A DNA stretch of 64,000 nt from an uncultured Verrucomicrobiae bacterium. GTDB lineage: Bacteria > Verrucomicrobiota > Verrucomicrobiia > Palsa-1439. A model generated the notes under the pieces. That model ran no database searches. It saw nothing but the letters and a program-made list of their open reading frames with translations, and was not told where the DNA came from. Shown one piece after another: positions 46,058 through 52,692 of the stretch (its first letter is position 1; each line of letters begins with the position of its first letter). Where the stretch lies: positions 704,001 to 768,000 of the forward strand of contig CAWEWF010000014.1 of the NCBI GenBank assembly GCA_963812605.1, written 5' to 3'. The position numbers and the translations under genes are program-made.

Positions 46058-46131
46058 GCGCTTGTGGTTTAGCAGCAGAACACCGCGTTGCCAACGCGGA
46101 GGTGCGGGTGCGACTCCCGCCGAGCGCTCCA
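46058..46131 (+). tRNA. tRNA-Gly(GCC)
   Basis: CCGCG-TTGCCAA-CGCGG; CCA; T-loop TGCGACT. Confidence 0.88.
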
Positions 46132-46142
46132 ATTCCAGTGCT

Positions 46143-46216
46143 ACGGCGTGCGCCAGTTCGCGCAGTTGAGTCTCCAAAACTCGGCGTGGTTGGGGCGGCA
46201 CCAACACGCCGTGCCA
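46143..46216 (+). tRNA. tRNA-Trp(CCA), degenerate D arm
   Basis: TGAGT-CTCCAAA-ACTCG; ACGGCGT/ACGCCGT; GCCA. Confidence 0.75.
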
Positions 46217-46220
46217 GTTT

Positions 46221-46296
46221 GGGGACACATGTGCCGTAGCGGCGAGACTGCCTTGCAAGCAGTTTGTGGTGGGTGCAACTCCCACTGTCTCCACCA
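46221..46296 (+). tRNA. tRNA-Ala(TGC)
   Basis: ACTGC-CTTGCAA-GCAGT; G3:U70; ACCA. Confidence 0.85.
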
Positions 46297-46308
46297 GTTC
46301 GGACCCGC

Positions 46309-46399
46309 GGGTGATGTTCCGGTCAACGGTCTGTAGAACCGTGGTCGCTAAAACAAGGTCGGAAGACGACGAGTGGAGCGTTACCACCATCACCCACCA
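46309..46399 (+). tRNA. tRNA-Tyr(GTA), reduced D arm, long variable arm
   Basis: ACGGT-CTGTAGA-ACCGT; GGGTGAT/ATCACCC; ACCA. Confidence 0.72.
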
Positions 46400-46406
46400 G
46401 TTTCAC

Positions 46407-46482
46407 GACTCGGAAGAGGAACAGCAGACTCGCCTGCCTGTCTAGCGGGAGATAACGGGGGCAGCACCCGTCCGGATCGCCA
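46407..46482 (+). tRNA. tRNA-Asp(GTC)
   Basis: CCTGC-CTGTCTA-GCGGG; GCCA. Confidence 0.78.
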
Positions 46483-46487
46483 TTTCG

Positions 46488-46562
46488 CGGGCACGAGGAA
46501 GATAGCAATCCGCCCGGTTTGGAACCGGGAGACACTCGGGGCAGAACCGAGGTGCCCGACCA
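46488..46562 (+). tRNA. tRNA-Pro(TGG)
   Basis: CCCGG-TTTGGAA-CCGGG; CGGGCAC/GTGCCCG; ACCA. Confidence 0.85.
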
Positions 46563-46569
46563 ATTTCCA

Positions 46570-46645
46570 CTCCCCGTAGTTCAGATTATAGAATGCCGAG
46601 CTTCTAACTCGGAGGTCGCAGGTGCGAGTCCTGCCGGGGAGACCA
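46570..46645 (+). tRNA. tRNA-Arg(TCT)
   Basis: CCGAG-CTTCTAA-CTCGG; ACCA. Confidence 0.9.
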
Positions 46646-46653
46646 GTTTTGAT

Positions 46654-49255: not shown

Positions 49256-49260
49256 ACTTT

Positions 49261-49356
49261 TTGGGGTAGTGAGATTCGGGTTACTTCATGGTCCTGTTGG
49301 TTCGAATCCAACCTTCAGCCTTCCGGCTGATGTTCCCGGGTCGGTTTACTCCTCAA
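49261..49356 (+). ncRNA. Y-RNA-like unit 3 (T arm retained)
   Basis: GGGGTAGTGAGATTCGGGTTACTTC...GTTGGTTCGAATCCAAC...GGTCGGTTTACTCCTCAA. Confidence 0.7.
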
Positions 49357-49380
49357 AACAATCCAAACACAACCAAATCC

Positions 49381-49477
49381 GTGAGGCAGTGAGGTCAGGG
49401 CTACTTCGAAACTGGGATGGGTGAAAACCCCACCAGTCTGGCCGCAAGGCCGTTTCCCCGGCCGGTTTACTCCTCAC
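49381..49477 (+). ncRNA. Y-RNA-like unit 4
   Basis: GTGAGGCAGTGAGGTCAGGGCTACTTC...GGCCGGTTTACTCCTCAC. Confidence 0.68.
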
Positions 49478-49498
49478 ACAACCTGAAAGGAGCACGCA

Positions 49499-50931
49499 AT
49501 GAGATTCAACCTGCTCAAGAGACGCCGCACGGGCGCCGATACCGTCAACTTCGCTGGAGGCGAGGCGTTCACGGAATCCCCAAAGCTGGAACTGGCGGCG
49601 CTAATGTTGACCGCGACACTGCAGAACGACTTTTATCGTTCCGCCAACGCCACTGCTACGCGCTTGAAGGAACTCATCGGCAAGATCGACGACAAGAAGT
49701 TTGTCGCCAAGACTGCGCTCTACGCCCGCAACAAGGCGGGGATGCGTTCGGTTTCACATCTGACTGCCGGTGAGTTGGCCCGCACCGTGAAGGGGCAGCC
49801 GTGGACTGCGAAGTTCTACGAACAAGTGGTCCGCCGCCCGGATGACGCGTTGGAAATCCTCGCGTACTACCTGGCGATGCACGGTCGGCCCATCCCAAAC
49901 GCGTTGAAGAAGGGCCTGGGCGCTGCCTTGGCGCGTTTCGACGAGTACCAGTTGGCCAAGTATCGCAAGAGCGCTGCGGAAATCTCGCTCGTGGACGCGG
50001 TAAACCTCGTTCACCCGAGACACACCGAGGCATTGAAGAAGCTGGTCAACGGCACTCTCGCGCCGGCAGAAACCTGGGAAACCAGACTGACGGAGGCGGG
50101 TGCGGCGGCGGAGTCGGAAGACGAACTCGCCGAGTTGAAGAAGGACGTGTGGACGAAGCTGATCGAGAGTCGCAAGCTCGGTTACTTCGCGCTGTTGCGC
50201 AACCTGCGCAACATTCTCCAAGCCGCGCCTGAGTCAATGGATGCGGCCATCACAATGTTGACGGATGAGAGGCTCATCCGGCGCTCGTTGGTGCTGCCAT
50301 TCCGTTATCCTCACGGCGCTCGAAGCAATGCAGGCGACTAAGCCTGCCGAATGTCAGCAAGGTACTCGTTGCTCTCAGCGAGGCGGTGGACAAGTCTCTT
50401 GTTAACGTGCCGCAGTTCGATGGCAAGACGCTGGTTGCGCTGGATGGCTCTGGTTCGATGCAGGGGCGTCCCCTGAAGATCGGCTCGCTGTTTGCCGCAA
50501 CGCTGGCGAAGGCCAACGATGCGGACGTAATGCTGTTCAGTAACGACGCGAAGTATGTCTCCCTGAACCACCGTGACAGCACGTTGACGCTGGCGCAGTG
50601 GCTGGAGAGCCAGGCCCAGTCGGCGGGAACCGACTTCCATTGCATCTTCCAGACGGCGAAGCGCGGTTATGATCGCGTGATCATCCTGTCGGATATGCAG
50701 GGTTGGATCGGTCACTACGCTCCGACCAAGACCTATGAGGCGTACAGGAGACAGTTCGGGGTTGACCCGAAGGTTTTCTCGTTCGATCTCAAGGGTTACG
50801 GCACGTTGATGTTCCCCGAACGCAGCATCTATTGTTTGGCCGGCTTCTCCGACAAGACAATGGACATGCTGAAGTTCCTCGACTCGGATAAGTCCGCATT
50901 GCTTCGAGAAATCGAGGCCGTCGAGTTGTAA
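49499..50931 (+). CDS. rsr: Ro60/Rsr TROVE-vWA RNA-binding protein, apparent frameshifts near 50310-50340
   Basis: NFAGGEAF, FDEYQLAKY, LGYFALLRNLRNI, LPFRY; C-terminal vWA DGSGSM, GTDF, ILSDMQ. Confidence 0.88.
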
Positions 50932-50935
50932 CCTC

Positions 50936-50975
50936 GGGAGCTTCCTGACCACGGTTGGGAAGCTCCCTTCTCTTT
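50936..50975 (+). terminator. Hairpin after Ro60 gene
   Basis: GGGAGCTTCC...GGAAGCTCCC followed by TTCTCTTT. Confidence 0.5.
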
Positions 50976-51063
50976 CCAGTAATTTGAAGCATCCGGCAAC
51001 GACAACCGAGCTGCGTCGTCTGTCATTACACAAATCAACCCGCTCGGAGAAAGGAGCCACATC

Positions 51064-51307
51064 GTGAGATTCAACATCCTGAAGAGACGCAGCACGAACG
51101 CCGATTCCGTCAACTTTGCCGGCGGGGAGGCATTTACCGAGTCGCCAAAGGTGGAACTGGCGGCGCTGATGTTGGGCGCAGGCAACCAGCTTGGTCTTGG
51201 GCAACCACCATTGACATTGGTTGCGTTTTCACTAATCCGCAATCGCGAAGTTCCTCGACTCGGACAAGACGGCGCTGCTGCGAGAAATCGAAGCGGTGGA
51301 GTTGTAA
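51064..51307 (+). pseudogene. Internally deleted second Ro60 copy
   Basis: Start MRFNILKRR..NFAGGEAFTESPKVELAALML and end KFLDSDKTALLREIEAVEL* match the termini of 49499-50931. Confidence 0.85.
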
Positions 51308-51380
51308 ACAAACCCGGTGGAGGAGTAGCTTGAAGGCGTGCTCCTCCATCCCATTGAATGATAGGAAAGGAAACACCAAC

Positions 51381-52550
51381 ATGAAGCCAGTAATCTTCGG
51401 TCAGCATGACGAGGCGACGATCCGGCAGATCGAAACCTGCCTGGCGGCGGGCGGCGAAAAGGCCGTGCTGTGCGCGGATGGCCACAAGGGCTACGCCCAA
51501 CCAATCGGCGGCGTGGTCGCCTACAAGGACAAGGTGTCGATCTCGGGTGTCGGTTTCGACATCGCCTGCGGCAACCTTGCCATCCGCACCGACGCCATGG
51601 AAGCCGACATCCAGCCAAAGATGGACGCGATCATGGACGACGTGGTGCGCCACATCTCGTTCGGCGTCGGCCGCACGAACAAGAACAGGGTTGACCATGA
51701 ACTGTTCGACGACGAAGCGTGGAACATTCGCGCGATTGGCCAACTGAAGCACCTGGCGCAGGAGCAGCTCGGCACGGTCGGCAGCGGCAACCATTATGTG
51801 GATGTCTTTGCCGATGAGGGTGGCGTGGTCTGGGTCGGCGTGCACTTCGGTTCGCGCGGGCTCGGTCACCGGTCGGCGACGCACTTCCTGAAGGTTGCGG
51901 GTGGAAAGGACGGCATGGATGTACCACCTACCGTTCTCGATCTGCGGGTTCAGGTCGGTCAGGATTACCTCGCGGCGATGAGGCTGGGCGGTCGTTACGC
52001 CTACGCCGGCCGCGAGTACGTCGCCCGTTTCGTCGTGCGTGAGATTCTCCAGGCGAACATCGTGGAAGAAGTTCACAACCACCACAACTTCGCCTGGGAA
52101 GAAGAACACTACGGCGAAAAGTTCTGGGTCGTGCGCAAGGGCGCTACGCCGGCGTTTCCCGGTCAAAAGGGATTCGTCGGCGGCAGCATGGGCGACGACG
52201 CCGTAATCATCGAGGGCATTGACACGGCAAGATCGCGCGAGGCCTTGTTCTCGACCGTCCACGGCGCTGGACGCGTCATGTCGCGCACGGCAGCCAAGGG
52301 CAAGTTCGAGAACGTCGGCGGAAAGCGTATCCGCCAACCCGGGCGAATCCGTCATGATGAAATGATGGCCTGGCTCAAGAACAAGGGCGTCGTCCTGCGA
52401 GGTGGCGACCTTGACGAAGCGCCCCAGGCCTATCGTCGCCTGACGGATGTACTCGCGGCACAGGGTCGCACGATTCGCGTTCTCCATACGCTCCGCCCGC
52501 TGGGCGTGGCCATGGCCGGACGAAACATCGTCGATCCCTACAAGGACTGA
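51381..52550 (+). CDS. rtcB: RtcB-family RNA ligase
   Basis: DGHKGY.QPIGG, VGFDIACG, GTVGSGNHY, HFGSRG, HNHHN, RKGAT, HGAGR, DEAP.AY. Confidence 0.95.
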   Translation: MKPVIFGQHDEATIRQIETCLAAGGEKAVLCADGHKGYAQPIGGVVAYKDKVSISGVGFDIACGNLAIRTDAMEADIQPKMDAIMDDVVRHISFGVGRTNKNRVDHELFDDEAWNIRAIGQLKHLAQEQLGTVGSGNHYVDVFADEGGVVWVGVHFGSRGLGHRSATHFLKVAGGKDGMDVPPTVLDLRVQVGQDYLAAMRLGGRYAYAGREYVARFVVREILQANIVEEVHNHHNFAWEEEHYGEKFWVVRKGATPAFPGQKGFVGGSMGDDAVIIEGIDTARSREALFSTVHGAGRVMSRTAAKGKFENVGGKRIRQPGRIRHDEMMAWLKNKGVVLRGGDLDEAPQAYRRLTDVLAAQGRTIRVLHTLRPLGVAMAGRNIVDPYKD

Positions 52551-52617
52551 AGGCAAGCTGCCCGCGGTTGGAGCGATGTCAGCCACATCCTGTGCATTGT
52601 TCCAACCTCCCCTTTTC

Positions 52618-52692
52618 GCTCCCATAGCTCAACAGACAGAGCCTTCCTCTCCTAAGGGAAAGATTTGGGTGCAACTCCTGATGGGAGCACCA
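52618..52692 (+). tRNA. tRNA-Arg(CCT), array-type T-loop
   Basis: TTCCT-CTCCTAA-GGGAA; GGTGCAACTCC; ACCA. Confidence 0.87.

Follow-up and report, generated by a model that had tools for sequence, protein, structure and literature searches.

The region described here is a stretch of 64,000 nucleotides of DNA (the window) from an uncultured Verrucomicrobiae bacterium of the GTDB lineage Palsa-1439 (assembly GCA_963812605.1, contig CAWEWF010000014.1, positions 704,001 to 768,000). It contains a dense array of transfer RNA (tRNA) genes, in which nearly all members carry a guanine at position 55 of the T-loop (G55) and most carry an adenine at position 18 of the D-loop (A18), the two positions at which canonical tRNAs have a uridine (U55), modified to pseudouridine (Psi55), and a guanine (G18). 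Psi55 and G18 rank among the most conserved nucleotides in biology and are assumed by tRNA finders, modification maps and structural models. Between the main run of tRNA genes and a last, isolated tRNA gene lie four Y-RNA-like units, a split Ro60/Rsr gene and a gene for an RtcB RNA ligase, and a gene for an HNH endonuclease follows this last tRNA gene. In the following sections, the array, the occurrence of its unusual elbow in other genomes and viruses, the neighbouring genes and the possible functions are described and discussed.

The tRNA array

Using a structural scan, 33 tRNA-like units have been identified, all on the + strand, of which 32 are packed in 2.95 kb (46058-49009) and the remaining unit (52618-52688) lies 3.6 kb downstream on the same strand. 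Each unit had to have an acceptor stem of 7 bp, a T stem of 5 bp that carries a loop of 7 nt, an anticodon arm and a D stem, while the loop sequences were left free except for U33. ARAGORN at default settings reports 20 tRNAs in the window, namely a tRNA-Val at 10185, a tRNA-Leu at 34401 on the - strand and 18 on the + strand within 46058-52692. The Rfam model RF00005 at its gathering score also recovers 18/33 array units, and the units below this score reach 21-29 bits or are unreported in a permissive Rfam search. In all, 15/33 units escape the standard finders at default settings, and ARAGORN with the option -ps90 finds 26/33. Seven units depend on the structural scan; of these, the tRNA-Phe passes the Rfam gathering score and tRNA-Thr(GGT) is seen by ARAGORN -ps80.

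The array units have the stems of the cloverleaf, an anticodon loop of 7 nt that contains U33, and the identity elements of their isoacceptors. The anticodons span 20/20 amino acids, with in addition a second CAT tRNA that has a C1xU72 mismatch, and CCA is encoded in 29/33 units. The array is extra to a complete housekeeping set, since 47 tRNAs are found outside it by ARAGORN and 42 canonical ones by the structural scan. A scan for sigma-70 promoters returned 0 sites, terminator-like sites occur at chance level, and no anomaly in GC content was found over the island. A search for sequencing runs listed 20 entries of DNA type, the best with 0.45 of the sampled words, and no RNA run among them. 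The stretch directly 5' of the first tRNA (45878-46048), which contains a long hairpin at ~45988-46048, resembles the upstream stretches of two other arrays (loci L081 and L100), and could represent a leader or promoter common to these arrays.

The elbow of the array tRNAs

Positions 54-56 of the T-loop read TGC in 20 of the 33 units, AGC in five, GGC in four, and CGC, TGT, TGA and TTC in one unit each. G55 is thus present in 32/33 units. The initial annotation, made from the letters of the sequence and a list of open reading frames, had claimed the same, and the structural scan arrives at the identical number of units as well as at 32/33. The canonical signature of U54-U55-C56 with G18-G19 is largely absent, with U55 in 1/33 units. 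This sole exception is the initiator-like tRNA-Met(CAT) at 47756-47825, which was singled out by the initial annotation for its retained D-loop GG and indeed has the T-loop TTCAATT and the D-loop CGTGGCA. Among the 31 G55 units with a parsed D-loop (the Tyr unit could not be parsed), GG is absent from 27, and the base before the presumed G19 is A in 23, C in three and T in two, with no call in three. The suggestion that AG replaces GG in the D-loops of many members is thereby borne out, with A18 in 23/31 units and D-loops such as AACAGTA, AAGAGCA and AATAGTA as examples.

The pair between positions 54 and 58 is T:A in 23 of the 33 units, A:T in five, G:G in four and C:A in one. The loop consensus is TGCRA in 20 units, CGCAA in one and GGCRG in four, which are loops of the YGNRA or GGNRG type in which the pair between the first and the fifth base is present. 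Both housekeeping tRNAs of the window (Val, 10185-10257; Leu-TAA, - strand) have TTC and GG, as had been noticed at the start, and this extends to all 42 true housekeeping tRNAs that the structural scan finds in the 4.17-Mb genome (G55 in 0/42). The difference between 32/33 array units and 0/42 housekeeping tRNAs has a Fisher p of 2e-20. A gene for TruB is present in the source genome.

Occurrence of G55 arrays in other genomes and viruses

Related arrays were searched for with a pattern of three G55 T-arm motifs at tRNA spacing, of which the D-loop was not a part. The pattern has one match in the window and 0 in 100 shuffles. It was found in at least 120 stretches in contigs from one genome per species, and in 55 stretches in IMG/VR viral contigs. 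At least three G55 tRNA-like units are present in 57/120 genome stretches (among the matches listed) and in 30/55 viral stretches. The other 63/120 listed genome stretches and 25/55 viral stretches have fewer than three such units and were not counted as arrays. A contig of Desulfofundulus thermobenzoicus (L048) was rejected as a G55 array, since it is a CRISPR (clustered regularly interspaced short palindromic repeats) array with a 30-nt repeat that contains the motif; repeats of this kind give false positives when G55 arrays are sought by motif.

Among the matches listed, the carriers are mainly Verrucomicrobiota, Myxococcota, Planctomycetota, Gemmatimonadota and Acidobacteriota. Two of the viral records that contain G55 arrays, of 275 kb and 225 kb, carry direct terminal repeats and are rated as 100% complete by CheckV in IMG/VR. 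In five viral records with G55 arrays, no match to Terminase_6N or Terminase_6C was found, and Phage_sheath_1 matched two of the five below threshold (E 7e-8 and 2e-6). A sample of the host phylum has the stringent motif in 5/401 genomes (the source genome included) and in 5/185 genera; the trait is rare and patchy in this phylum. A distant DNA search among cultured phages gave only five single-tRNA matches. A separate observation concerns a contig of Staphylococcus petrasii (L045), on which a tRNA cluster has 14 TTC, three TGC and one TGT units; the non-TTC units are presumably tandem copies of the non-proteinogenic tRNA-Gly.

Covariation between positions 18 and 55

The initial annotation had proposed to look for covariation between positions 18 and 55 across homologous arrays, and this covariation is present. 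It was studied in a set of 1277 tRNA-like units with a scan score of at least 50. Position 18 was called by a heuristic rule, namely as the base that precedes the last G of the D-loop still followed by 2-4 bases. Only the T-loop was used to ascertain the loci, and the D-loop therefore serves as a fair test. Among the 1025 G55 units, 880 have A18 and 21 have G18, and among the 245 U55 units, 222 have G18 and one has A18, counts that are, like all those for covariation given here, inflated by related sequences, as the loci are phylogenetically non-independent. The coupling holds in the genome loci and in the viral loci taken separately, and G55 is seen in all 20 amino acid families. C56 is retained in 976/1025 G55 units. 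The pairs between positions 54 and 58 across the loci are T:A (1018), A:T (59), G:G (74), C:A (65) and C:C (27), and the loop types across the other loci are TGCGA (384), TGCAA (359), GGCAG (67) and CGC(A/G)A (55).

Close homologues with the same anticodon and at least 80% identity allow the exchange to be followed in pairs. In 13/15 pairs that differ at position 55, position 18 is also swapped between G and A, where the 15 pairs are not all independent, as one partner occurs four times. An example of such a joint switch is a pair of tRNA-Leu(GAG) genes with 90% identity.

The stems of single isoacceptors have also been compared between genomes. In 14 orthologous sequences of tRNA-Ile(GAT), 97.5% of the pair cells are standard, compared with 76.4% after shuffling, and 15/23 pairs have changed on both sides; G19:C56 is kept in 14/14 and the T-loop AGCGTTA in 11/14. 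In 15 orthologous sequences of tRNA-Arg(TCG), 97.3% of the cells are paired, compared with 82.5% after shuffling, and 11/22 pairs have changed on both sides. Since the scan preselects paired stems, the percentages of paired cells are in part circular, which the double changes are not. Single isoacceptors keep their own T-loop variant from genome to genome.

In 51 arrays with at least eight units and at least 80% G55, G55 is present in 789/827 units. Of the 34 U55 units in these arrays, 17 are CAT tRNAs, mostly with a mismatch between positions 1 and 72. The initiator exception to G55 is general across arrays. A few initiator-like CAT tRNAs carry G55 (in L020, L093 and L101).

The array tRNAs have 53-73% identity to the tRNAs of the host. 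The best host match is a tRNA for the cognate amino acid in 15/33 units, and the discriminator base is the same as in the cognate host tRNA in 30/33. Several identity marks are present, such as G3:U70 in Ala, G-1 and C73 in His, C1:G72 in Pro, and U1:A72 with G73 in Gln and Asn. The identity marks, the discriminators and the cognate host matches indicate that the members of the array derive from different isoacceptor lineages, each with G55. The initial annotation had read the elbow as a compensatory A18-G55 arrangement under selection rather than decay, and this reading is supported by the coupling between positions 18 and 55 and by the double changes in the stems. That the G55/A18 elbow is a design kept by selection, and not a product of decay, is given a probability of about 0.9.

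Individual tRNAs of the array

All units were found by the structural scan; further support is given below for each, where bits refer to Rfam. The array starts with tRNA-Gly(GCC) at 46058-46127 (T-loop TGCGACT and D-loop AGCAGCA with A18), which is found by ARAGORN and by Rfam (62.1 bits). It is followed by a tRNA-Trp(CCA)-like unit at 46143-46212, with the T-loop GGCGGCA and an irregular D-arm, and by tRNA-Ala(TGC) at 46221-46292, with G3:U70 and the T-loop TGCAACT. Both are seen by ARAGORN -ps90, and the latter also scores 26.6 bits with the tRNA-Sec model, which is below threshold. The next three are supported by the structural scan only: a tRNA-Tyr(GTA)-like unit at 46309-46395 with a long variable arm, the T-loop AGCGTTA and an unparsed D-arm, tRNA-Asp(GTC) at 46407-46478 with the T-loop GGCAGCA and the D-loop AACAGCAG, and tRNA-Pro(TGG) at 46488-46558 with C1:G72, the T-loop GGCAGAA and the D-loop GATAGCA, for which orthologues were found. 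ARAGORN and Rfam both recover tRNA-Arg(TCT) at 46570-46641 (61.1 bits), with the T-loop TGCGAGT and the D-loop AGATTATA without G19, and tRNA-Asn(GTT) at 46654-46724 (49.1 bits), with the T-loop TGCGAAT and the D-loop AACAGTA. The tRNA-Ser(TGA) at 46730-46817 has a long variable arm and the T-loop AGCATTA and is seen by ARAGORN -ps90. An open reading frame of 55 amino acids without a family match lies within the array at 46855-47019 on the + strand.

Beyond this frame, tRNA-Ile(GAT) is present at 47076-47145, with the T-loop AGCGTTA (A54:U58) and the D-loop AAGAGCA (ARAGORN, 51.1 bits). The tRNA-Phe(GAA) at 47152-47222 has the T-loop TGCAACT and A8/U14 (37.4 bits), and tRNA-Arg(GCG) at 47236-47308 has the T-loop TGCGAAT and no encoded CCA (ARAGORN, 51.3 bits). 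The tRNA-Thr(CGT) at 47339-47411, with the T-loop TGCAATT, is found by ARAGORN and by the permissive Rfam search (45 bits). The tRNA-His(GTG) at 47424-47493 has G-1, C73 and the T-loop TGTAAGT, in which position 56 is U (41.2 bits, ARAGORN -ps90), while tRNA-Cys(GCA) at 47506-47577 has U73, the T-loop TGCGACA and the tail TCA instead of CCA (ARAGORN). The tRNA-Thr(GGT) at 47589-47659 has the T-loop TGCGATT (ARAGORN -ps80), and tRNA-Gly(TCC) at 47671-47745 has the T-loop TGCGACT and a long D-loop (28.9 bits in the permissive search, ARAGORN -ps90). The initiator-like tRNA-Met(CAT), with its C1xU72 mismatch, is recovered by ARAGORN and Rfam (36.7 bits), and is followed by a CAT tRNA of the elongator type (Met or Ile2) at 47837-47907 with the T-loop TGCGAAC (ARAGORN, 56.8 bits).

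In the last part of the main run, tRNA-Lys(CTT) at 47916-47986 has the T-loop GGCGGTA and A8/U14 (ARAGORN -ps90), tRNA-Thr(TGT) at 47999-48069 has the T-loop TGCGACT (ARAGORN, 49.5 bits), and tRNA-Gln(CTG) at 48080-48150 has U1:A72, G73 and the T-loop TGCAATT (ARAGORN, 46.9 bits). Three tRNA-Leu genes are present in this part (48162-48474), and all three have type-I bodies of 71-72 nt without a long variable arm. They are tRNA-Leu(TAG) at 48162-48232, with a 71-nt body and the T-loop TGCAAAT (ARAGORN, 51.9 bits), tRNA-Leu(TAA) at 48326-48396, with the T-loop TGCAATC and the tail CCG (ARAGORN, 48.6 bits), and tRNA-Leu(CAA) at 48403-48474, with the T-loop TGCGACT and the D-loop AACAGCAG (ARAGORN, 46.4 bits). 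Between the first two lies tRNA-Arg(TCG) at 48241-48312, with the T-loop TGAGATT (A56) and the D-loop AAAGTATA (ARAGORN, 59.4 bits). In the family of this tRNA, position 56 is A or G rather than C, and the D-loop contains U and lacks the usual G19, features that are kept in 15 genomes. A pair U19:A56 or U19:G56 could be formed in this family, and would possibly be a second rewiring of the elbow.

The tRNA-Ser(GCT)-like unit at 48485-48573 has a long variable arm and the T-loop CGCAAGC and is supported by the structural scan only. It is followed by a type-II tRNA with the anticodon TAT at 48588-48675, which is 88 nt long, with a 23-nt variable arm, the T-loop AGCGTTA and no CCA (ARAGORN); sequences with 87-90% identity to this unit are present in three other arrays (L075, L083 and L049). 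The run ends with tRNA-Glu(TTC) at 48678-48751 (T-loop TGCGAGA; 21.3 bits in the permissive search, ARAGORN -ps90), tRNA-Lys(TTT) at 48758-48830 (T-loop TGCAACT; structural scan only), tRNA-Gln(TTG) at 48861-48930 (T-loop TGCGAAT, D-loop AATAGTA; ARAGORN, 62.6 bits) and tRNA-Val(TAC) at 48940-49009 (T-loop AGCATAA; 47.5 bits, ARAGORN -ps90). The isolated unit at 52618-52688 is a tRNA-Arg(CCT) with the T-loop TGCAACT and the D-loop AACAGACA (ARAGORN, 52.5 bits).

Genes neighbouring the array

Directly behind the main run, four tandem Y-RNA-like units have been identified by alignment on the + strand at 49018-49482 (~49018-49121, 49122-49262, 49263-49366 and 49380-49482). Common to all four are a 5' GG(N)AGTGAG...CTTC block and a 3' ACTCCTCA block. 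A tRNA-like module is present in the second unit, where both the T-arm (canonical, GGTTCGATTCC) and the D-arm (with GG in its loop) are complete. The Rfam model YrlA (RF02553) matches at 49125-49257 with 40.6 bits, under its gathering score of 69. The fourth unit contains a GGGTGAAAACCCC hairpin, which has a loop of the UGAAA type.

A Ro60/Rsr gene follows on the + strand at 49499-50931, and profile matches place it in two frames, with the TROVE domain at 49499-50341 and the Ro60 vWA domain at 50386-50931. The frame split lies near 50310-50350. An assembly of the reads over 49400-51400 gave three short contigs, from two of three sequencing runs, and one contig of 855 nt (a ~93% identical relative, depth 3.1) has small indels at 50310-50339 with a net change of -2. 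These indels, seen in a single contig of low depth, coincide with the split, which may therefore be particular to the strain or due to an error of assembly. Sequence reading further points to a remnant of a second rsr copy at 51066-51310 (+ strand), in which only the N- and C-terminal ends are present, fused to each other. An RtcB RNA ligase is encoded at 51381-52550 (+ strand; PF01139, E 2.1e-62), and an HNH endonuclease of the kind found with long tRNA arrays at 52747-53334 (+ strand), with 44% identity over 79 amino acids to the array HNH protein of Nostoc PCC 7120 (E 3e-22).

Within flanks of at most 8 kb around 102 tRNA-bearing loci, HNH genes are found at 41 loci, RtcB genes at 22 and Rsr genes at 15. 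Y RNA, Rsr, RtcB and HNH neighbours recur at related arrays, and the closest of these is L072, on a chromosome of a Verrucomicrobiae bacterium, of which the RtcB protein is 75% identical. Upstream of the array, a cluster at 34727-45257 encodes a DUF4132/HEAT protein, a MoxR-type AAA_5 ATPase, a DUF5682 protein, a CoxE-like VWA protein and a SWIM zinc-finger protein; it gave no PADLOC match and has no evident link with the array. Elsewhere in the source genome (contig C8, 43770-44354), a stand-alone Schlafen AlbA_2 protein of 194 amino acids (40.3 bits) is encoded beside an ABC transporter permease, also without a link to the array.

Comparison with known systems

The block belongs to the known 'L-array' kind, the long tRNA arrays acquired by horizontal transfer, a membership that the initial annotation had not recognised. 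A run of tRNAs on one strand, which is extra to the housekeeping set, a patchy spread, and linked HNH and RtcB genes are all found. L-arrays have been described as spreading horizontally, as present in Verrucomicrobia, Planctomycetes and other phyla, and as having a conserved HNH gene (PMC8421152). The best known example is the trn operon on plasmid delta of Anabaena/Nostoc PCC 7120, which resembles the array of the window in its dozens of closely spaced tRNAs on one strand beyond the housekeeping set, in its patchy distribution and in its association with RtcB and with an HNH protein (44% identical). The tRNA-Leu bodies are short and of type I in both arrays (73-74 nt in the Anabaena array, L181). 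For the Anabaena array, association and co-regulation with rtcB and induction under translational stress were reported, 23/26 tRNAs were found to be charged in vivo, and polysomes contained tRNAs of the array (PMC8421152). The gene order of the window is different, and linked Y RNAs and Ro60 are present in addition. The elbow is also different, as 18/19 scanned units of the Anabaena array have canonical U55/G18. The exception is tRNA-Ile(GAU), with the T-loop GGCAGTA and A18, which reportedly gave an aminoacylated band that migrated with aberrant mobility (PMC8421152). This band is one experimental hint that G55/A18 tRNAs can be charged. The main text of that article mentions neither the T-loop nor U55 or G55.

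In canonical tRNAs, G18 intercalates between positions 57 and 58 and bonds to Psi55, and G19:C56 forms a flat outer face that is read by the L1 stalk of the ribosome, RNase P and T-boxes (PMC4810234). T-loops outside tRNAs are built differently. In the flavin mononucleotide (FMN) and cobalamin riboswitches, 88.7% of the T-loops are UGNRA and 10.9% are CGNRA, a ribosomal RNA loop of the GGAAG type has been noted, and the generic receptor of such loops provides an adenosine that is intercalated between positions 4 and 5 and faces the G at position 2 (10.1101/2022.12.26.521914). The array loops, UGCRA, CGCRA or GGCRG with A18, are like this generic module. Unlike in the riboswitches, the module lies within a tRNA and C56 (position 3) still pairs with G19. 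Judged by these loop sequences, the inner contact of the elbow looks exchanged for the generic module, with the outer face untouched.

Among natural tRNAs with a non-canonical elbow, the nearest precedent is the non-proteinogenic tRNA-Gly of staphylococci, which lacks G18, G19, U55 and C56, has U18U19 or C18U19 and binds EF-Tu weakly (PMC4574755). These are also natural bacterial tRNAs without G18 and U55, and they form a functionally separate pool. Unlike this tRNA-Gly, which serves one amino acid, the array keeps G19:C56, swaps positions 18 and 55 in a compensatory manner and spans all amino acids. Another likeness is with the phage tRNAs that escape PARIS and retron-Eco7 (cited in PMC13462974), since in these cases too the tRNAs of a mobile element are altered at a possible nuclease site. 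The known cases are single tRNAs altered in the anticodon loop, whereas here a whole set is altered at a universally conserved position of the T-loop together with a second-site partner, and the escape is hypothetical. The neighbouring genes can be compared with the Rsr/Y RNA/RtcB repair modules (PMC4201824), with which they share a Ro60 orthologue, adjacent Y-like RNAs that mimic tRNA, and RtcB. They differ from the known modules in the sub-threshold YrlA match, the four tandem Y-like units, the split rsr and the junction with a G55 tRNA array, while the tRNA-like module of the Y RNA stays canonical in its T-arm.

A literature search, with subscription journals and supplements outside its scope, turned up no account of natural tRNA arrays with G55/A18. 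The type of element is already known; no printed mention was found of a systematic, covarying elbow of this kind or of its wide distribution.

Possible functions of the G55/A18 elbow

The elongator members of the array have G55 in place of U55 and A18 in place of the intercalating G18, while G19:C56 and the pair between positions 54 and 58 (U:A, or swapped to A:U, G:G or C:A) are kept. In the proposed mechanism, the inner contact would then be the UGNRA loop with an intercalated adenosine, a riboswitch T-loop/receptor module set into a tRNA. Such tRNAs are predicted to fold into the normal L shape, to be charged and to decode. Because U55 is absent, no Psi55 can be formed by TruB and enzymes that need a U54-U55 step have none. 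A nuclease of this kind has recently been described: Cash, a Schlafen nuclease of a type III CRISPR system, cuts the T-loop of tRNAs mainly 5' of U55 at UUC, and a single mutation of U54 or U55 abolishes the cleavage (PMC13462974). Homologues of Schlafen occur in association with many defence systems, and the targeting of phage tRNAs was left open by the authors (PMC13462974). G55 tRNAs would resist T-loop tRNases such as the Schlafen-type Cash, and the array could be a nuclease-proof reserve set of tRNAs. Phages would carry it as counter-defence, and a chromosomal array would be kept, together with RNA repair genes, for restoring translation after tRNA damage. The presence of the arrays in large phages and mobile islands and their tie to RNA repair genes are the reasons for ranking nuclease escape first. 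A function as working tRNAs that would not be cut or modified by enzymes needing U54-U55 is given a probability of about 0.4.

Several observations weigh against this interpretation. The main one is that the initiator-like tRNA mostly retains U55, although escape would predict a change there as well, unless the nucleases spare initiators. The tRNA arrays of the cultured phages MD18 and Rctr197k are canonical (U55), as is most of the Anabaena array, and long arrays and phage tRNA sets therefore do not need G55. No Schlafen or RtcB match was found in the five viral records with G55 arrays, a result of little weight either way, and PADLOC gave no match among nine neighbouring or related proteins. 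The split rsr and the remnant of a second copy mean that the island may be partly decaying, and the D-arm is irregular, as parsed, in ~5 units (Trp, Ala, Tyr, Ser-GCT and the type-II TAT unit, parsed as Ile-TAT). To these are added the heuristic call of position 18 and the relatedness of the sequences behind the covariation counts.

Among the other explanations, a rather unlikely one is that the elbow serves self-sufficient folding, in which the UGNRA/adenosine module would be stable without Psi55, 5-methyluridine 54 (m5U54) or the chaperone activity of TruB, and would give robustness, rather than escape, to foreign tRNAs made in bursts or in a host with other modification enzymes, which could then function immediately. 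Outside tRNA, UGNRA with an intercalated adenosine is the most frequent natural T-loop and functions without modification (10.1101/2022.12.26.521914), the arrays cross phyla and occur in phages, and the TruB of the host cannot act on G55. This explanation has to account for the initiator-like tRNA of the same arrays, which retains U55 and G18, and for the cultured phage tRNA sets and the Anabaena array, in which U55 suffices. The restriction of the change largely to elongators, the sole users of EF-Tu and of A-site entry, would fit with array tRNAs that formed a separate non-translational or decoy pool, with an altered elbow that avoids EF-Tu and the A-site or RelA, and acted as a toxin sponge or as donors of amino acids outside the ribosome. 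The weakly EF-Tu-binding staphylococcal tRNA-Gly is a precedent for such a pool (PMC4574755), and a sponge role has been proposed for the Anabaena array (PMC8421152). It is nevertheless improbable, since, unlike in the staphylococcal tRNAs, G19:C56 and the pair between positions 54 and 58 are kept, the set, in which identity elements and anticodon loops are intact, covers 20 amino acids plus an initiator, and the Anabaena array tRNAs are found in polysomes (PMC8421152).

The selection could also act on the DNA. If the array HNH endonuclease cut the DNA of canonical T-arms, a change from GTTC to GTGC would escape it, and A18 would be a repair at the RNA level. HNH genes are the commonest neighbours (41/102 tRNA-bearing loci), and SegB of phage T4 prefers to cleave within tRNA genes (PMC8421152), but homologous HNH genes also neighbour arrays in which most or all units have U55 (Anabaena, L119, L098 and L028), and the initiator-like gene retains GGTTC, which leaves little probability for self-immunity of this kind. 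Still less probable is a neutral founder effect or decay, in which G55 arose once and spread by duplication or gene conversion in an unused selfish array. The split rsr with the remnant of its second copy, the 15/33 units missed by standard finders and the irregular D-arms would fit with this, but positions 18 and 55 are coupled at a distance of ~37 nt and in all 20 amino acid families, T-loop variants specific for an isoacceptor are kept between genomes (AGCGTTA in 11/14 Ile-GAT sequences), the stems have compensatory changes, and the array tRNAs are closer to their cognate host types than to each other. Against both decay and a mutational bias, the change from G to A at position 18 and that from T to G at position 55 shift the composition in opposite directions.

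Significance

A complete tRNA set has dropped U55 and G18 together, and more than 1000 tRNA-like genes of soil and freshwater bacteria and large phages share the solution. For genome annotation, this means that G55 genes are under-called by current tools. For tRNA structure, the arrays are a natural experiment on what the elbow needs, in which the outer G19:C56 is fixed and the inner contact between positions 18 and 55 is interchangeable with a riboswitch-type solution. G55/A18 tRNAs may also provide ready scaffolds for orthogonal tRNAs. For defence, a testable link is provided to the newly described T-loop tRNases.

More tentatively than nuclease escape itself, it is proposed that the G55/A18 sets could be a widespread mobile, largely phage-borne second translation kit, with an elbow rebuilt from the generic UGNRA/adenosine module, which would be usable by synthetases, RNase P and the ribosome and hidden from enzymes that need U54-U55, in particular the Schlafen-type tRNases of antiviral defence that cut in the T-loop. 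If this is true, the arrays would be a new front of the arms race, at a tRNA position that was thought to be untouchable, and the U55 of the initiators would show that the driving nucleases or factor act on elongator tRNAs only.

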